From: Escherichia phage ECP1
Strand: one strand, 5' to 3'
Length of the DNA: 40,469 bases
Sequence record: KY979108
Shown piece after piece: positions 6,594 to 34,215 of the stretch (positions are counted from its first letter, which is position 1; each line of letters starts with the position of its first letter). The position numbers and the translations under genes are program-made. The notes under the pieces were generated by a model. That model was not told where the DNA came from, made no database searches, and was given only the letters and a program-made list of their open reading frames with translations.

Positions 6594-7053
6594 TCAACGT
6601 AAGGCGTTCCTCGATATGCTGGCATGGTCAGAGGGAACTGATAACGGACGTCAGAAAACCAGAAATCATGGTTATGACGTCATTGTAGGAGGAGAGCTAT
6701 TCACTGATTACTCCGATCACCCTCGCAAACTTGTCACGCTAAACCCCAAACTCAAATCAACAGCCGCCGGACGCTACCAGCTTCTTTCCCGTTGGTGGGA
6801 TGCCTACCGTAAGCAGCTTGGCCTGAAAGACTTCTCTCCGAAAAGCCAGGACGCTGTGGCATTGCAGCAGATTAAGGAGCGTGGCGCTTTGCCGATGATT
6901 GATCGTGGTGATATTCGTCAGGCAATTGACCGTTGCAGCAATATCTGGGCTTCACTGCCGGGCGCTGGTTATGGTCAGTTCGAGCATAAGGCTGACAGCC
7001 TGATTGCAAAATTCAAAGAGGCTGGCGGAACGGTCAGAGAGATTGAGGTATGA
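6577..7053 (+). CDS. R: Endolysin R (lytic transglycosylase)
   Basis: 158 aa, near-identical to lambda R as remembered. Confidence 0.9.
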
Positions 7054-7487
7054 GCAGAGTCACCGCGATTATCTCCGCTCTGGTTATCTGCATCATCGTC
7101 TGTCTGTCATGGGCTGTTAATCATTACCGTGATAACGCCATTACCTATAAAGAGCAGCGCGATAAGGCCACATCCACAATCGCTGACATGCAGAAGCGTC
7201 AACGTGATGTAGCAGAACTCGACGCCAGATACACAAAGGAGCTTGCTGATGCTAACGCGACTATCGAAAGTCTCCGTGCTGATGTTTCTGCTGGGCGTAA
7301 GCGCCTGCAAGTCGCCGCCACCTGTGCAAAGTCAACGACCGGAGCCAGCGGCATGGGCGATGGAGAAAGCCCAGGACTTACAGCAGATGCTGAACTCAAT
7401 TATTACCGTCTCCGAAGTGGAATCGACAGGATAACCGCGCAGGTTAACTACCTGCAGGAGTACATCAGGACTCAGTGCCTGAAATAA
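7050..7487 (+). CDS. Rz: Spanin inner-membrane subunit Rz
   Basis: N-terminal TM segment, follows R with overlapping start. Confidence 0.85.
7243..7434 (+). CDS. Rz1: Spanin outer-membrane lipoprotein Rz1, embedded in Rz in the +1 frame
   Basis: Signal peptide with lipobox (LLGVSAC) and proline-rich mature region, fully inside Rz. Confidence 0.75.
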
Positions 7488-25661: not shown

Positions 25662-25886
25662 ATGTATACAGTTGGGTTTGGTTGGATCTTCGTCGGTATT
25701 TTTATTGGGTTAATTCTCTGGTTTTTCATCAACCGCGCCAGCGTCAGAGCGAACAGGCAGGTTGAATTACTTGAGTCTATCGACCAGAAATTATCAAAAA
25801 TAGTAGATCCAAACTTCGAGGCAAATAACAAAGACCAGTCGAAAGAAAACTACCTTGAAGAAGCAAGGAAAAAAGCTGGGCTTTGA
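25662..25886 (+). CDS. Small single-pass membrane protein (74 aa) inserted between K and I
   Basis: Hydrophobic N-terminal helix then a charged tail; AT-rich compared with neighbours. Confidence 0.5.
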   Translation: MYTVGFGWIFVGIFIGLILWFFINRASVRANRQVELLESIDQKLSKIVDPNFEANNKDQSKENYLEEARKKAGL

Positions 25887-26597: not shown

Positions 26598-29500
26598 ATG
26601 GCAACTGCAACCGCGATTAAAGGCCGCAAAGGCGGTAGTTCAAAGACACGCACTCCAACTGAACAGCCCGATGATCTGCAGTCAGTTGCGAAGGCGAAAA
26701 TTTTAATCGCCCTTGGCGAGGGCGAGTTCTCCGGGCAATTAACCGGCAAAGATATCTACCTGGACGGAACAGCGCTGGAGAATGCTGACGGCTCCCAAAA
26801 CTTCAGCGGGGTAACGTGGGAGTTTCGCGCGGGAACGCAGGCGCAAAAATATATTCAGGGTATTCCCGGTACCGAAAACGAGATCAGCGTAGGAACTGAG
26901 GTATCAAGTGCCACAGCCTGGACGCGCACGTTTACCAATACGCAGCTTTCAGCAGTTCGCCTGCGTCTTAAATGGCCCTCGCTTTTCAAACAGGAAGACG
27001 ACGGCGATCTGGTGGGTTACTCGGTCAATTATGCGATTGACCTGCAGACTGACGGCGGCACATGGCAGACGGTACTCAATACCAGCGTGACCGGTAAAAC
27101 GACCTCAGGTTATGAGCGCAGCCACCGTATCGATTTACCGCAGGCTGGCAGCACCTGGACAATACGTCTGCGTAAGATTACCTCTGACGCCAACAGCGCG
27201 AAGATCGGCGACACGATGATGCTGCAGAGCTTCACTGAGGTGATTGACGCCAAGTTACGATATCCAAACACAGCGTTACTCTACATCGAATTCGATTCCA
27301 GCCAGTTTAACGGCTCTATCCCTCAGATCTCCTGCGAGCCCCGCGGCCGCGTTATCCGCGTTCCAGATACCTACGACCCTGAAACCCGCACTTATAGCGG
27401 TACATGGACCGGTGCGTTTAAGTGGGCATGGACGGATAACCCTGCGTGGATTTTTTACGACCTGGTTGTTTCTGACCGGTTCGGCCTTGGGCACCGTTTG
27501 ACCGCTGCGAATATTGATAAATGGACGCTTTATCAGGTTGCTCAGTATTGTGATCAGATGGTACCAGACGGCAAAGGGGGCAACGGTACAGAACCACGCT
27601 ATACCTGCAACGTGTACATTCAGGACCGGAACGACGCCTACACAGTCCTGCGTGATTTTGCCGCTATCTTCCGTGGCATGACCTACTGGGGCGGGGATCA
27701 GATTGTGGCCCTGGCTGACATGCCGCGCGATGTTGATTACAGCTACACGCGCGCTAACGTTGTTGGCGGTCGCTTCACCTATTCGAGCAGCACCACGAAA
27801 AGCCGCTACACCACAGCACTGGTTTCATGGTCAGATCCGGGGAACGCTTATGCCGACGCGATGGAGCCGGTATTTGAGCAGGCGCTGGTGGCGCGATACG
27901 GCTTCAATCAGCTGGAAATGACAGCCATCGGCTGCACCAGGCAGTCAGAAGCGAACCGAAAGGGGCGCTGGGGTATTCTCACCAACAACAAGGATCGCGT
28001 TGTTTCGTTTGATGTCGGGCTGGACGGAAACATTCCGCAGCCTGGCTACATCATCGCCGTGGCAGACGAGCTGCTTTCCGGAAAGGTTATGGGCGGCCGC
28101 ATCAGCGCCGTTAACGGTCGCGTTATCAAACTTGACCGCGTAGCTGATGCAGCACCAGGTGATCGCCTTATTCTCAACCTTCCCTCCGGAGCGTCGCAGA
28201 GCAGGACCATTCAGGCCGTGAACGGGGAATCAGTCACAGTCACCACGGCATACAGTGAGACGCCACAGGCCGAAGCTGTTTGGGTGGTTGAATCTGACGA
28301 GCTCTACGCGCAGCAGTATCGAGTTGTCAGCGTTTCCGATAACAATGATGGCACTTTCTCGATTACCGGCGCATGGCACGACCCGGATAAATATGCCCGT
28401 ATCGATACCGGAGCCATCATTGACCAGCGGCCGGTGAGCGTGATTCCGCCGGGTAACCAGTCGCCGCCTGCGAACATCGTGATCAGCTCGTTTTCCGTGG
28501 TTCAGCAAAATATCAGCGTCGAAACAATGCGCGTGAGCTGGGACCAGGCGCAGAACGCTATCGCCTATGAAGCACAATGGCGCCGCAACGACGGGAACTG
28601 GGTTAACGTGCCGCGCACCTCCACCACGTCATTCGACGTCCCGGGGATTTATGCCGGGCGCTACCTGGTGCGGGTGCGCGCAATCAATGCCGCAGAAATT
28701 TCATCCGGATGGGGCTATTCAGAAGAGAAAACGCTGACGGGTAAAGTGGGCAATCCACCGAAGCCGGTTGGCTTTATCGCCTCTGAAAACGTGGTGTTCG
28801 GTATCGAGCTGAACTGGGGATTCCCGGCGAATACCGACGACACGCTGAAGACGGAAATTCAGTACAGCCTGACCGGTACTGAAGACGATGCCATGCTGCT
28901 GGCCGATGTGCCTTACCCGCAGCGCAAGTATCAGCAGATGGGCCTGAAGGCGGGGCAAATTTTCTGGTACCGGGCGCAGCTGGTGGACAGGACAGGCAAT
29001 GAGTCGGGTTATACCGACTGGGTACGTGGACAGGCCAGTATCGATGTGTCGGATATCACCGATGTTATCCTGGAGGACATTAAAGAATCGGACACGTTCA
29101 AGGAACTGATCGAAAGCGCAGTAGACAGCAACGAAAAAATTGCTGGTATGGCTGACGATATCAGACAGAACGCTGACGATCTGGAGCAACAGGCGCTGGC
29201 CATCAAGGAAAACGCCGATGGGCTCGCCCAGGCCGAGGTGAAGATTGACGAAATCTCTGTCTCGATGGATGGCATGACGGGAGGCGTTAAAAACTCCTCT
29301 ATCGCGGTTATTCAGAACAGCCTCGCGCAGGTCACCAGCCGTCGATCCCAGACAGCCACCAACGCCGGGAACAGCGCCAGCATCGACCGTATCGATACCA
29401 CCATTGCAGATACCAGCCAGGCGGTTGCCCGTGCGCTGGTTACGCTTGATGCTTCTGCCGGTGGTAATGTCTCAAACGCGACCGATCTCACCGAAACCCT

Positions 29501-30053
29501 TGCTGATTTCACGCAGGCCTCGGCCACGAAAATCAACTCCCTGACGGTTACGGTAAACGGCCAGACAGCGGCTATTAACCAGACCGCGCAGGCGGTGGCT
29601 GATGTGAACGGTAACCTCAGCGCGATGTATAACATCAAGGTTGGCGTTTCCAGCAACGGTCAGTATTACGCCGCGGGCATGGGGATTGGTGTTGAGAATA
29701 CGCCGTCCGGGATGCAGTCGCAGGTCATCTTCCTGGCTGACCGCTTCGCCGTCACCACGGCAGCAGGTAACAGCGTGGCTTTGCCGTTTGTGATCCAGAA
29801 TGGACAGACATTCATCCGGGACAGTTTCATCCAGGACGGCACTATCAGCAACGCAAAGATTGGTAATTTTATCCAGTCGAACAATTATGTTGCTGGTTCT
29901 GCTGGCTGGAAGCTTGATAAAGGGGGGACGTTTGAGAACTACGGTTCGACTGCTGGTGAGGGAGCCATGAAACTGACAAATCAGACGATCAGCGTCAAAG
30001 ATGGCAGTAATGTTCTTAGGGTGCAGGTTGGACGATTAACGGGAGTATTCTGA
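26598..30053 (+). CDS. J: Host specificity protein J (central tail fibre)
   Basis: 1151 aa in the J position, with fibronectin-like central region. Confidence 0.9.
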   Translation: MATATAIKGRKGGSSKTRTPTEQPDDLQSVAKAKILIALGEGEFSGQLTGKDIYLDGTALENADGSQNFSGVTWEFRAGTQAQKYIQGIPGTENEISVGTEVSSATAWTRTFTNTQLSAVRLRLKWPSLFKQEDDGDLVGYSVNYAIDLQTDGGTWQTVLNTSVTGKTTSGYERSHRIDLPQAGSTWTIRLRKITSDANSAKIGDTMMLQSFTEVIDAKLRYPNTALLYIEFDSSQFNGSIPQISCEPRGRVIRVPDTYDPETRTYSGTWTGAFKWAWTDNPAWIFYDLVVSDRFGLGHRLTAANIDKWTLYQVAQYCDQMVPDGKGGNGTEPRYTCNVYIQDRNDAYTVLRDFAAIFRGMTYWGGDQIVALADMPRDVDYSYTRANVVGGRFTYSSSTTKSRYTTALVSWSDPGNAYADAMEPVFEQALVARYGFNQLEMTAIGCTRQSEANRKGRWGILTNNKDRVVSFDVGLDGNIPQPGYIIAVADELLSGKVMGGRISAVNGRVIKLDRVADAAPGDRLILNLPSGASQSRTIQAVNGESVTVTTAYSETPQAEAVWVVESDELYAQQYRVVSVSDNNDGTFSITGAWHDPDKYARIDTGAIIDQRPVSVIPPGNQSPPANIVISSFSVVQQNISVETMRVSWDQAQNAIAYEAQWRRNDGNWVNVPRTSTTSFDVPGIYAGRYLVRVRAINAAEISSGWGYSEEKTLTGKVGNPPKPVGFIASENVVFGIELNWGFPANTDDTLKTEIQYSLTGTEDDAMLLADVPYPQRKYQQMGLKAGQIFWYRAQLVDRTGNESGYTDWVRGQASIDVSDITDVILEDIKESDTFKELIESAVDSNEKIAGMADDIRQNADDLEQQALAIKENADGLAQAEVKIDEISVSMDGMTGGVKNSSIAVIQNSLAQVTSRRSQTATNAGNSASIDRIDTTIADTSQAVARALVTLDASAGGNVSNATDLTETLADFTQASATKINSLTVTVNGQTAAINQTAQAVADVNGNLSAMYNIKVGVSSNGQYYAAGMGIGVENTPSGMQSQVIFLADRFAVTTAAGNSVALPFVIQNGQTFIRDSFIQDGTISNAKIGNFIQSNNYVAGSAGWKLDKGGTFENYGSTAGEGAMKLTNQTISVKDGSNVLRVQVGRLTGVF

Positions 30054-30054
30054 A

Positions 30055-30357
30055 ATGGCTTATGGAATACAGACCTGGGATGCTTCAGGAAAACCCAACA
30101 ACTATGGCATCAAACCCGTTTCCGTCGTTGGGCGAATACAGCTGGCTGCCGGGCAAACCTCCGGCAGCTGGTCTTTTACGGTGCCCTCAGGAATGAAAGT
30201 TGGTTTTGTTCTTTCACTTGATGAAGGAGGTAACAGCGTAGGGCGGCGCATTGTCGCGTCAGGGAGCACAATAACCGTAAGCGCTGCATCTTCTGTAGGC
30301 CTGGGAAATTATCCGGCCTCAAAATGTGAGGTGGTTGTTTTCATGGAGAAAGCATAA
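30055..30357 (+). CDS. Hypothetical protein downstream of J
   Basis: ORF coupled to the J stop. Confidence 0.45.
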   Translation: MAYGIQTWDASGKPNNYGIKPVSVVGRIQLAAGQTSGSWSFTVPSGMKVGFVLSLDEGGNSVGRRIVASGSTITVSAASSVGLGNYPASKCEVVVFMEKA

Positions 30358-30995
30358 TGGCCGAATTTGGCGCGATGATATTAATGGACAACGGGAACCC
30401 ATTTGTAACGCCCCAGTCAACGCCTTTTTGTCTTTACGGCAAGTACACTTTCAACTCCTCTGCTAATGGCAGTTCGCAGCAGGTTGCTCAGAATATTGCA
30501 TTAAATGCTGACTACCCTGTGATGGTATTTATCAGGACCACAAATACCGCCCAGCCCACGCCAGTAATATCTTACCGGAACGGCGGAAATATATATGTCG
30601 CGGGGGTTAATCCTTATAACCAGAGCTTCACGTTAACTGCATATATATTTGCCATATTTCCACAGACGTTACCGAAGTGGGGGATGGCAATCTGGGATTC
30701 GAGCGGGAAGCTGGTACTCACTAATGAGTCCCGCGTGCTGTCAGACTTGCAGACAATCGGAACGCCTGGAGCAAACGGCGGGATTAACATTGACCAGACG
30801 CTTGATGGTTCATGGGCAGTGGCTCCATCAAGGCTGGGGCAAGTGAACAGAAACGACGCTTACTCATCTTGTAGGTATTCAGGCACAAGTACAAGAATAA
30901 ACGCTGGTACAGCCGCAAATACTCCTGGGGGGGCTGGAGGGGTGATAAATAATGGAATTATCCTGACAGCAATTAAAACAGACGCCTATGATTGA
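30357..30995 (+). CDS. Hypothetical protein, possibly tail-fibre associated
   Basis: ORF coupled to the upstream gene. Confidence 0.45.
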   Translation: MAEFGAMILMDNGNPFVTPQSTPFCLYGKYTFNSSANGSSQQVAQNIALNADYPVMVFIRTTNTAQPTPVISYRNGGNIYVAGVNPYNQSFTLTAYIFAIFPQTLPKWGMAIWDSSGKLVLTNESRVLSDLQTIGTPGANGGINIDQTLDGSWAVAPSRLGQVNRNDAYSSCRYSGTSTRINAGTAANTPGGAGGVINNGIILTAIKTDAYD

Positions 30996-31073
30996 TCGCT
31001 TTGAGCGATCAATTATCCCAATTTATTTCATGCTGCTATTGTTGAGTTAATATTGACCTCTGGATTATTAATA

Positions 31074-31307
31074 ATGAAAAAGCTGATTATCTGCCTGGCT
31101 GTAGCGTTATCTCTGACCGGTTGCGCTGGTGTACTTGAGAAACAGAAACCGATTTGCAGCGGCACGGCATATATGGGTGGCCATGAGAATACCGTTATGA
31201 TTTACGCCGTTCGAAAGCAAAACAACCAGACGCAATACCAGGCCGGATATCCCTTTAACTGGCGCTGGGTAAGTGCGAACACATTCACAAGCACGACATG
31301 TAAATAA
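31074..31307 (+). CDS. Small lipoprotein (candidate Cor-like superinfection exclusion protein)
   Basis: Signal peptide with lipobox LTGC (MKKLIICLAVALSLTGCAG); located downstream of J where cor-type genes sit. Confidence 0.5.
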   Translation: MKKLIICLAVALSLTGCAGVLEKQKPICSGTAYMGGHENTVMIYAVRKQNNQTQYQAGYPFNWRWVSANTFTSTTCK

Positions 31308-31365
31308 CTCATGATTTTCAATGCAAACCTCGCCTCGGCGGGGTTTTTTATTGCCTGGAGAAAAT

Positions 31366-32661
31366 ATGCTTTATAACACTGGAACCATCGCCATTAACGG
31401 AAACAGCGCCACCGGCACGGGCACGAACTGGACGGCACCCGCCAGCCAGGTCCGCGCTGGCCAGACGATTATCGTGATGTCTAACCCGGTGCAGCTGTTT
31501 CAGATTTCATCCGTGAACAGCGCCACGTCAATGACGGTTACTCCAGCTGCTTCCCCGGCGCTGAGCGGCCAGAAGTACGGCATTCTTGTTACTGATAGTC
31601 TCTCGGTCGACGGCCTGGCGCAGAGCATATCTCAGCTCATTAACGAGTACGACGAGAATATCGGCGCGTGGGAGACGTTCGCCACCACCTCCGCAAACCA
31701 GACTATCACCGTTACTATCAATGGGGCCTCCGTGAATATTCCTGGTATTGGCGCACTTGCCAGAAAGGGGGCGAATAGCGATATCACGGAGCTGAAAGGG
31801 CTCACTACCGCGCTTTCTATTGCACAGGGTGGCACCGGGGCAACGAAGGCAGAAGACGCTCGCACAAACCTCGGTTTGGGAAACGTAGCCACTCTTAATA
31901 CTGGCGAGTCTCGTGAAAACGTAGTTACGGTAGGTTCTTCTGGTATTGGAGGCAACAGTATCGGAACAGGGTCTGAAAACATCAATACGTTTGCCGGGAA
32001 AACATGTTTCTGGACTGGGCGAGGTAGCGGACCCATTACCAGTGTTGTTTTTGGTTTTACAGTAACCCACTCCACACAGTCATCCGCTTATAACACACAG
32101 GTTGCATTCAGAGGCGGGCGCTCTTATCTTCGCGCACTGGAAGGTGGAACCTACACAAGCTGGTATGAAAATTACTCAACAGCCAACACCACTAAAGCCA
32201 GTGATGGAACTCTTAAAGCGGCATCGCCGGTGGCACGTATCGTTAAGTCTCAGGAAGAGAGTCAGCGTACTGACGTAGCCGATGATGGTTTCTCCTGGTG
32301 CGGCTGTGGAACGGCGAACGCTGAGGCGGAGGGAATAACCCTTTCCCGCCTCGAGGTGGGTGTTTACTTGCTGGCCGGTTCGGCAGGACTTGCGTCAGAG
32401 GGATGGCAACTGCTGCCGCCAATGGACCCTGGCGGAATGGGAGAGCTTGGCGTTGTCGAAGCAGAACAGACCGAAAGCGGCGAGCTGACAATCCGTCTTT
32501 TCAAGCGAAAATATATCCTGAGCGATGAAGGTGAGGTCATCAAAACCAAAGGTGAACCGATTGACGTCCCGGCGAACAGCTGGATCGATGTTCGTCTGGA
32601 TATGCCAGAAAACAGTGTCTGGAATCAGCGCCAGAAAGAGGCGATTGAACCTGCTTCATAA
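31366..32661 (+). CDS. Side tail fibre protein
   Basis: Glycine/serine/threonine-rich repetitive protein with conserved tail-fibre-like segment; start after hairpin and RBS GGAGAA. Confidence 0.75.
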   Translation: MLYNTGTIAINGNSATGTGTNWTAPASQVRAGQTIIVMSNPVQLFQISSVNSATSMTVTPAASPALSGQKYGILVTDSLSVDGLAQSISQLINEYDENIGAWETFATTSANQTITVTINGASVNIPGIGALARKGANSDITELKGLTTALSIAQGGTGATKAEDARTNLGLGNVATLNTGESRENVVTVGSSGIGGNSIGTGSENINTFAGKTCFWTGRGSGPITSVVFGFTVTHSTQSSAYNTQVAFRGGRSYLRALEGGTYTSWYENYSTANTTKASDGTLKAASPVARIVKSQEESQRTDVADDGFSWCGCGTANAEAEGITLSRLEVGVYLLAGSAGLASEGWQLLPPMDPGGMGELGVVEAEQTESGELTIRLFKRKYILSDEGEVIKTKGEPIDVPANSWIDVRLDMPENSVWNQRQKEAIEPAS

Positions 32662-32869
32662 AGAAAACCGCCGCCTGTCGTATGCAAGCACGAGCCACGG
32701 CTGGCTGTCTAACTTTCGATAGTGCGAGTATTGAATGATTTCCAGCCGCTACCGATTTTACTATGTTTTCAGTAGAACACTTAGACAAAACTGAGACACA
32801 CAAATCTTTGCACTGGATTGCAAGGCTTTGTGCTCTTCTGTGAATGTGTGGCTATATGTTTGAAGATCG

Positions 32870-32889
32870 TTGTGCCGTATTTGTGACAT
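32870..32889 (+). promoter_or_regulatory. attP arm-type integrase binding repeat TTGTGCCGTATTTGTGACAT
   Basis: Near-identical copy at 33089..33108 on the other side of the core; partial copy at 32921..32933. Confidence 0.5.
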
Positions 32890-32995
32890 ATATATGGCAA
32901 CATCATGCATCAACTTTCTGTTTGTGCCATCAACTATAGCTTAGTGAATGCGGTTAATGCTTGCTAAAACAGATAGTTATGATTGGTGCTACAGA

Positions 32996-33040
32996 TTCGT
33001 AATGCGAAGGTCGTAGGTTCGACTCCTATTATCGGCACCA
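32996..33040 (+). other. Attachment-site core: 3' 45 nt of a tRNA-Thr(CGU) (anticodon loop through CCA), not a complete tRNA
   Basis: TTCGTAA anticodon loop (anticodon CGT), T-arm GGTTCGACTCC, acceptor 3' strand and CCA are present; the 5' half is absent and replaced by unrelated sequence. Confidence 0.7.
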
Positions 33041-33054
33041 TTTAAATCAATGAG

Positions 33055-34215
33055 TTACCTCGCATTTAAGTAAACCACATTCTCCTCTTGTGCCGTATTT
33101 GTGCCATTGCGACTTATAATCGCATCGATTTTGCTCGCGTGCTCGGTGAGATGCCCGGCTGAAAGGTGTGCGTATCTTTGAACCATTTCGAGAGTTTCCC
33201 ATCCTCCCATCTCTTTAAGTGCAAGAAGAGAGACACCGGACTGAACCAGCCAGCTTGCCCAAGTATGCCTCAGGTCATGGAAGCGGAAGTTGCTAATGCC
33301 TGCCCGCTTTAACGCTCCCTTCCATGCCTTGTTGCTGTCGGTTCTCATCTTCCTTACCGCTGCTGTTTTTGTTCCGTCGCTTCGGTAGGCAGGTTTGGTG
33401 TGGACAAATACCCATCTCTTATGGAGCCCCTGCTGTTTTCTTAATATCTGGCATGCGGTTTCGTTAAGAGGAACTCCGATCGCATTGCCAGCTTTTGTTT
33501 CATCAGGGTGCATCCATGCCATTTTCTTATCCAGATCGACCTGTGACCACTCAAGGTCTGTAACGTTGGAACGGCGAAGGCCTGTCGTGATTGCAAACAT
33601 GACCACAGGGAAGAAATGAGGAGCAATTTCTGCAAACAGGCGCTTAGATTCCTCCTCTGTAAGCCATCTGATTCGTCCATTCTTAACGCGTGGTGTTGAT
33701 ATTTTGGGCGCCCTGTCAAGCCATCCCCATTCAACAGCCATATTGAGAATAGCGCGAAGTATTGCCAGATGCCGCGTCTTCGTTCCTTTGCTTGCCAGCT
33801 TTGGTTTATACTCCGGCACTGGCTTGCCAAGCCGCAAACACCTGTCCCGGCTCATTTCCCAGTTCAGGCGATGGCGGCGGTTTTCCATCCCGTCTACCGC
33901 CTCCATTATTTTTTCTGTTGTTATGTCAGAGAGAATGGTTTCTCTGAAGTGCAACATCCAGAACGATATAATGCTCTTGTCATCATCAATGGACTTCTTA
34001 TCCGATTTCTCACGCAGCCACCGTATGCAGGCTTCCTTGAATAGCTTTTTCGGCGATTCCCCGAGATTTTTTACTCTCCACGCTTCTGCTTTCAGACGAT
34101 CGTGAAGTTCTTGCGCTTGCCTTTTGTCCGATGTTTCAAGAGAGCGTCTAACTCTTGATCCATCTGGCGCGACGAAATCACAGTGCCACGTGCCACCGCG
34201 TAGTTTGATTGACAT
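33055..34215 (-). CDS. int: Tyrosine integrase (thrW-targeting, P22-like)
   Basis: 386 aa with HDLRHT and RYAHL catalytic motifs; adjacent to the att core. Confidence 0.9.
   Translation of the reverse strand: MSIKLRGGTWHCDFVAPDGSRVRRSLETSDKRQAQELHDRLKAEAWRVKNLGESPKKLFKEACIRWLREKSDKKSIDDDKSIISFWMLHFRETILSDITTEKIMEAVDGMENRRHRLNWEMSRDRCLRLGKPVPEYKPKLASKGTKTRHLAILRAILNMAVEWGWLDRAPKISTPRVKNGRIRWLTEEESKRLFAEIAPHFFPVVMFAITTGLRRSNVTDLEWSQVDLDKKMAWMHPDETKAGNAIGVPLNETACQILRKQQGLHKRWVFVHTKPAYRSDGTKTAAVRKMRTDSNKAWKGALKRAGISNFRFHDLRHTWASWLVQSGVSLLALKEMGGWETLEMVQRYAHLSAGHLTEHASKIDAIISRNGTNTAQEENVVYLNAR
33089..33108 (+). promoter_or_regulatory. attP arm-type integrase binding repeat TTGTGCCGTATTTGTGCCAT (inside the 3' end of int)
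   Basis: Direct repeat of the element at 32870..32889. Confidence 0.5.

Follow-up and report, generated by a model that had tools for sequence, protein, structure and literature searches.

It was on the cor alleles of phages phi80 and N15 that lysogenic conversion to resistance against T1 and phi80 was defined, and experimental work exists on the Cor lipoproteins of HK022, phi80, N15 and mEp167; FhuA, the receptor at issue here, is a TonB-dependent ferrichrome transporter. According to a passage of PMC3594210 that cites Uc-Mass et al. 2004, the Cor proteins of HK022, N15 and phi80 inactivate FhuA, protect lysogens from phages that depend on this receptor and cut ferrichrome uptake, and the HK022 record labels its cor as 'moron gene product; phage exclusion'. 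The working principle of Cor has been likened to that of the T5 lipoprotein Llp, for which a crystal structure places the protein on the periplasmic face of FhuA, with the external loops folded inward and the phage-binding site closed (PMC9586334; PDB 8A60 for the FhuA-Llp complex); its authors put the Cor-Llp identity at about 20%, the disulfide included, and consider the same mode of action likely. Here we analyzed a 40,469-nucleotide (nt) stretch of DNA from Escherichia phage ECP1 (record KY979108, in its entirety referred to as the window), and we consider it highly probable, from homology and the literature, that the short gene ending at position 31307 is the bona fide cor of an HK022/HK542-like temperate coliphage and encodes an FhuA-blocking lipoprotein.

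Among the described systems, the locus comes closest to the HK022 type. HK022 Cor (gp27, AAF30376.1) and its copies in HK542, HK75, mEpX2 and mEp235 likewise comprise 77 amino acids (aa) and are 92-93.5% identical to the window protein; the mature parts are one residue apart (Q56 in the window versus R56), and cor is flanked by the same genes and followed by the same terminator, whereas the window differs by five signal-peptide substitutions, a diverged upstream spacer and a 27-bp deletion. The phi80 and N15 proteins agree with it in lipobox position, Cys pair, AGYPF motif and gene order, and the phi80 record annotates a promoter, a signal peptide, an acylated Cys and a terminator that all align with the window; they differ by greater divergence (78% and 61-62% identity), and in N15 the distance from cor to the terminator is longer by about 160 bases. 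Cor of T1 and other Drexlerviridae (35.5% identity) belongs to the same NCBIfam and PHROG families and is encoded in a three-gene cassette beside a J-like gene, but the phage is virulent, so that the protein is expressed in lytic growth and not from a prophage. T5 Llp shares 11-12% identity with the window protein in structural alignments, with no detectable sequence match and no significant Foldseek similarity, and a common sequence family was not established in our analysis.

Results

Identity of the gene

The gene had initially been annotated, from its position and its lipobox, as an open reading frame (ORF) at 31053..31307 on the plus strand with a lipoprotein signal peptide and the lipobox LTGC, possibly a Cor-type exclusion lipoprotein. 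The ORF with these signatures is indeed present in the window, and the functional guess is borne out by strong sequence similarity and by a shared gene order; the extent of the ORF had to be corrected at its 5' end, as detailed below. The features of the gene are as follows:

31074..31307, plus strand: cor coding sequence, 77 aa plus stop codon, prolipoprotein Cor (assigned by NF047972, PHROG 1119 and identity to HK022/HK542/mEpX2)
31074..31121, plus strand: predicted signal peptidase II signal peptide MKKLIICLAVALSLTG, read from the sequence and aligning with the annotated phi80 cor sig_peptide
31113..31124, plus strand: lipobox L-T-G-C, read from the sequence
31122..31304, plus strand: predicted mature Cor, 61 aa, with Cys17 as first residue and putative acylation site and Ala at position +2

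The product matched the NCBIfam equivalog NF047972, 'phage exclusion lipoprotein Cor', with 138.1 bits against a cutoff of 31 (expectation value (E) 7e-41) and over its full length, residues 1-76 aligning with positions 1-76 of the 78-position model. An E of 3.7e-37 was obtained for PHROG 1119, 'Cor superinfection exclusion protein'. In a tblastn search of 50,697 phage records, relatives were found in 233, with identities that were consistent with a separate protein alignment:

mEpX2: 93.5%
HK022, HK542, HK75, mEp234 and others: 92%
phi80, mEp043, HK225: 78%
N15: 61-62%
T1 and relatives: 35.5%

When the six Cor proteins of the window, HK542, HK022, phi80, N15 and T1 are compared, G16, C17, C28, C76 and the core motif AGYPF (A57-G58-Y59-P60-F61) are invariant, such that both the conserved Cys pair and the motif of the family are present in the window protein. 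Pfam holds no Cor family and returned only sub-threshold noise driven by the signal peptide (DUF7292, DUF4223 and similar). Of the Cor/Lom-type proteins against which a homology search had been suggested at the outset, the Lom type proved irrelevant, since nothing of the Lom, Ail or Bor kind appeared among the Pfam matches. By sequence family the protein is a Cor and not an Llp.

The cor gene found here is already known, being covered by curated family models and present as an exact protein sequence in public databases. An identical 77-aa protein is deposited in GenBank as GAB0980762.1, 'hypothetical protein BT08F36_11020 [Escherichia coli]' (locus L006, 6001-6234), which shares a 90%-identity cluster with HK022 Cor AAF30376.1, and the identical protein occurs on four independent contigs, each time in unchanged gene order. 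When complete E. coli genomes were searched by megablast with the cor cassette, only 9 matched; this count reflects the short, mosaic query and not rarity of cor, since cor is annotated in 14 of the 15 J-region matches listed.

Start codon and lipoprotein signature

Translation almost certainly starts at ATG 31074 (MKKLIICLAVALSLTGC..., 77 aa) rather than at TTG 31053, because all homologues begin at an ATG aligned with 31074 in protein alignments and the frame upstream of it is not conserved. The latter is evident from a 1-nt indel between the window and HK022, HK542 and phi80 and, by our own reading, from an in-frame TGA seven codons 5' of the cor ATG in HK022. TTG 31053 was merely the first start codon encountered mechanically, and we rejected it on these grounds. 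A weak Shine-Dalgarno-like GGA is located 9 nt 5' of ATG 31074. From this codon the product begins with MKKLIICLAVALSLTGCAGVLEKQ..., and its signal peptide has the architecture of a K-K n-region, a hydrophobic core and a canonical lipobox. The predicted cleavage site, MKKLIICLAVALSLTG followed by C-A-G, is a sequence signature in which G16 and C17 are invariant and Ala, not Asp, occupies position +2. According to the Lol +2 rule of E. coli, the residue after the lipidated Cys governs sorting to the outer membrane, and Ala at this position therefore predicts outer-membrane sorting of Cor.

To place the lipobox against its background, a strict lipobox pattern was run on every start codon in the six frames of the 40-kb window. 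Only three loci were retrieved: cor, a start codon internal to a large gene, and an Rz1-type spanin ORF at 7249..7434. The cor signature is therefore not attributable to chance. The Rz1-type o-spanin lipoprotein ORF (plus strand) lies out of frame inside an Rz-like ORF at 7050-7487 and is the sole other genuine lipobox ORF in the window.

Candidate promoter and terminator

AT-rich sequence had been described in front of the gene, and the 78-nt spacer indeed has a GC content of 32%, compared with 51% for the window. The control elements assigned to cor are:

31012..31042, plus strand: candidate cor promoter, with a weak -35-like ATTATC at 31012..31017 and an extended -10 TGcTATTGT at 31034..31042
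31325..31352, plus strand: intrinsic terminator with a 9-bp stem, loop TCGG and a T-run, from a terminator scan

The candidate promoter aligns column for column with the cor -35/-10 annotated in the phi80 record FN582354, where the extended -10 TGGTATTGT corresponds to TGCTATTGT at 31034..31042 of the window. A generic sigma-70 scan did not call the candidate at 31012..31042; the two promoters that it did find, 30963..30992 inside the end of the preceding 212-aa gene and 31047..31075 over the start codon, were not adopted, as their number was no higher than in shuffled sequences (2 versus 1.3 +/- 1.1) and the phi80-aligned element was preferred. It is plausible that the latter drives cor. The terminator, with a predicted RNA fold of -16.2 kcal/mol (z -2.17), is kept in all four phages HK022, HK542, phi80 and N15 and is annotated as such in HK542 and phi80. 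With this candidate promoter and its own terminator, cor probably has the layout of a moron.

A mosaic 5' segment

Similarity to the HK022 type is unevenly distributed along the locus. The mature-coding DNA is identical to HK022 and HK542 at 185 of 186 positions, and the downstream spacer at all aligned bases (53/53 to HK542, 58/58 to HK022); the sole change in the mature part, R56 to Q, is natural also in Citrobacter-type Cor proteins. The signal-peptide codons, on the other hand, are identical to HK022/HK542 at only 35 of 48 nt, with 5 residue substitutions, and the upstream spacer matches HK542 at 52 of 78 positions and in addition shows a 27-bp deletion between ATCAAT direct repeats, situated directly 5' of the -35-like element in the alignment with HK022/HK542. 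For the 5' segment (30996-31121), the closest phage match was Fostie (86%), and the signal peptide resembles that of the Enterobacter Cor P0023, MKKLIIFLAVALSLSGC. In terms of sequence, the 5' divergence amounts to the mosaicism usual among lambdoid phages, the junction lying roughly where the signal peptide meets the mature protein.

Gene neighborhood and receptor-binding protein

The window represents the entire genome of an HK022/HK542-like lambdoid phage of the subfamily Hendrixvirinae: positions 15500-40469 are 98.5% identical to HK542 over 81%, and the first 15.5 kb are 98% identical to mEpX2, mEp506 and HK542 over 57-69%. Around cor, the following genes were assigned:

26598..30053, plus strand: J-type central tail fiber, 1151 aa, whose C-terminal receptor-binding end matches HK022 and phi80
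30055..30357, plus strand: 100-aa gene, PHROG 557 'outer membrane protein' (E 2.4e-36), no Pfam family
30357..30995, plus strand: 212-aa gene, PHROG 425 'membrane associated protein' (E 9.7e-75), no Pfam family
31366..32661, plus strand: side tail fiber (stf), 431 aa, PHROG 1591 (E 3e-143), Pfam PF25670, 76% identical to HK542 stf

The order is J, 100-aa gene, 212-aa gene, cor, terminator, stf, a non-coding stretch aligned to HK542 attP, and integrase. From J to stf it is the same in the annotated records of HK022, HK542, phi80 and N15. The lipoprotein gene lies where it had initially been placed, between the J-associated genes and the side tail fiber. The 100-aa gene corresponds to HK022 gp25, phi80 gp22 and N15 gp22, the 212-aa gene to HK022 gp26, phi80 gp23 and N15 gp23, and in HK022, phi80, N15 and T1 the two always stand between J and cor. 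They have been described as forming a cassette with cor that tracks FhuA use, and structure searches with them have yielded nothing; T1, HK022, N15, ES18 and phi80 rely on FhuA and carry the three-gene cassette, while close relatives not using FhuA lack it (PMC13164509).

The J protein points in the same direction. Its last ~137-150 aa are 98-99% identical to J of HK022, HK542 and phi80, and 55-57% identical to J of N15 and T1. With the C-terminus of J and Cor both nearly identical to their counterparts in FhuA phages, it is very likely that the phage uses FhuA as its receptor and that its Cor blocks FhuA. Over its whole length, J shares 90% identity with HK022 J and lacks 32 residues of the coiled region of the latter, at about aa 880; aa 840-1000 are diverged, while the N-terminal 840 and C-terminal 160 aa are near-identical.

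The side tail fiber is mosaic relative to HK542: near-identity extends over ~175 residues at the N-terminus and ~155 at the C-terminus, while a different sequence, shorter by 24 residues, occupies the region of about aa 180-275. The replaced middle suggests a different primary specificity, probably for a glycan. The non-coding stretch between stf and integrase (33055..34215, minus strand) is contiguous within 32662-34215, and the window is therefore in vegetative or circular gene order with attP intact, not an integrated prophage. HK542 annotates attP in this stretch as similar to thrW. ARAGORN detected no tRNA in the whole window, and an Rfam scan of the window was likewise empty. The NCBI contig BAAFNF010000014.1 carries the same cor and stf followed by different genes and was taken as a presumably integrated copy. 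A 74-aa ORF (25662-25886, plus strand) with one predicted membrane helix separates the K-like from the I-like tail assembly gene; contigs that share this gene order encode a 74-aa protein in the corresponding place, and it matches YebO (PF13974). Its positional counterpart is HK542_017, the HK022 gp20-like gene, and a terminator follows HK542_017; this ORF is probably another moron.

Model of mature Cor

For the 61 residues of mature Cor, AlphaFold2, supplied with 29 family members, predicted an all-beta small barrel with a predicted local distance difference test (pLDDT) score of 82.9. The predicted fold is Llp-like; Foldseek, with the Cor model as query, was far less clear-cut, no match being obtained at E <= 0.001.

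Discussion

The picture that can be drawn from homology and from the T5 system is the following. The 77-aa Cor precursor would be exported, lipidated at Cys17 and cut by signal peptidase II. The resulting 61-residue small beta-barrel, probably with a Cys28-Cys76 disulfide, would bind to the periplasmic face of FhuA and might thereby fold the external loops allosterically over the phage-binding site, as is the case with T5 Llp. Lysogens and infected cells would then no longer adsorb or admit T1, T5, phi80, HK022 or the phage itself, and progeny would be spared loss on cell debris. The outer membrane would be the right compartment for such a mechanism, in keeping with the sorting predicted from Ala at +2. 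We infer the periplasmic allosteric action of Cor and its expression from the proposed promoter; that Cor works like Llp appears to us the probable, but by no means assured, reading.

Several points weigh against this picture and need to be set beside it. In the Foldseek search, Llp ranked only 48th (E 0.58, template-modeling (TM) score 0.56), after generic Tudor/SH3-like barrels, and a sequence search of PDB chains gave no match to Llp or any other chain. Cor reportedly also interacts with other outer-membrane proteins, as the title of a 2018 article by Arguijo-Hernandez et al. has it, and a one-to-one model patterned on Llp may for this reason be incomplete. How Cor works at the molecular level is 'not yet elucidated' according to a 2026 preprint (bioRxiv 10.64898/2026.03.26.714494). 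Finally, the promoter/signal-peptide segment is altered relative to HK022 by the 27-bp deletion and the 5 substitutions, which raises the question of whether the expression level is affected. The first three of these observations, that is, the weak likeness to Llp in Foldseek, the other reported partners and the preprint's statement on the mechanism, would also suit a scenario in which Cor acts chiefly via, or needs, other outer-membrane proteins such as porins or OmpA, or in which it blocks DNA entry after adsorption instead of closing FhuA in the manner of Llp; we concede to it a small but real chance. The altered 5' segment bears on the idea of a decaying or poorly expressed cor, where deletion and replaced signal peptide would hamper transcription or export and little exclusion would result. 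That the deletion adjoins the -35-like element, that identity to HK542 falls from 185/186 in the mature part to 35/48 in the signal peptide and 52/78 in the intergenic region, and that the phi80-type promoter was not called by the generic scan would all be in line with this idea. Yet the ORF is intact, the K-K n-region and the hydrophobic core have been retained, the same allele is found in the same context on four independent contigs, and a similar signal peptide exists in the Enterobacter protein P0023, a pattern that fits exchange between functional alleles. With lipobox, terminator and extended -10 TGnTATTGT all still in place, there is no sign of cor decay, and poor expression of this kind strikes us as very unlikely.

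Position and lipobox alone do not discriminate Cor from an unrelated lipoprotein moron downstream of J, for instance one of the Bor or Lom/Ail type acting in serum resistance or adhesion, or from a spanin-like lysis lipoprotein, and in lambda it is lom that occupies the equivalent position. This reading nevertheless has next to no chance: Pfam gave no Bor, Lom or Ail match at E <= 1, the Cor equivalog was matched over its full length at four times the cutoff, and the Rz1-type spanin of the phage is encoded elsewhere, at 7249..7434; the combined Pfam, PHROG, NCBIfam and tblastn results refute a Bor/Lom/Ail or spanin identity. Taking the gene as cor, the mosaic 5' segment might be read further as a precise chimera, whose promoter and signal peptide stem from another cor lineage and whose mature domain, from about the lipobox Cys onward, is of HK022 type. 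An expression-plus-export module would then have been swapped as a unit, separately from the FhuA-binding domain, maybe tuning Cor dosage in lysogens or fitting export to different hosts, and the 100-aa and 212-aa genes would maybe be partners of Cor or FhuA rather than tail parts. Such an elaboration is speculative and, on balance, unlikely.

The biology of Cor itself is established, and the main value of our analysis lies in a corrected annotation and in the prediction that lysogens exclude FhuA-dependent phages. In the databases, the entry GAB0980762.1 lacks a Cor annotation, which the NCBIfam Cor model would supply. Given Cor together with an HK022/phi80-type C-terminus of J, resistance to T1, T5, phi80 and further phages that depend on FhuA is to be expected in lysogens of this phage; they would probably also resist colicin M and albomycin, while taking up somewhat less ferrichrome. 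These predictions are relevant to forecasting host range, to the composition of phage-therapy cocktails and to phage contamination in the laboratory.
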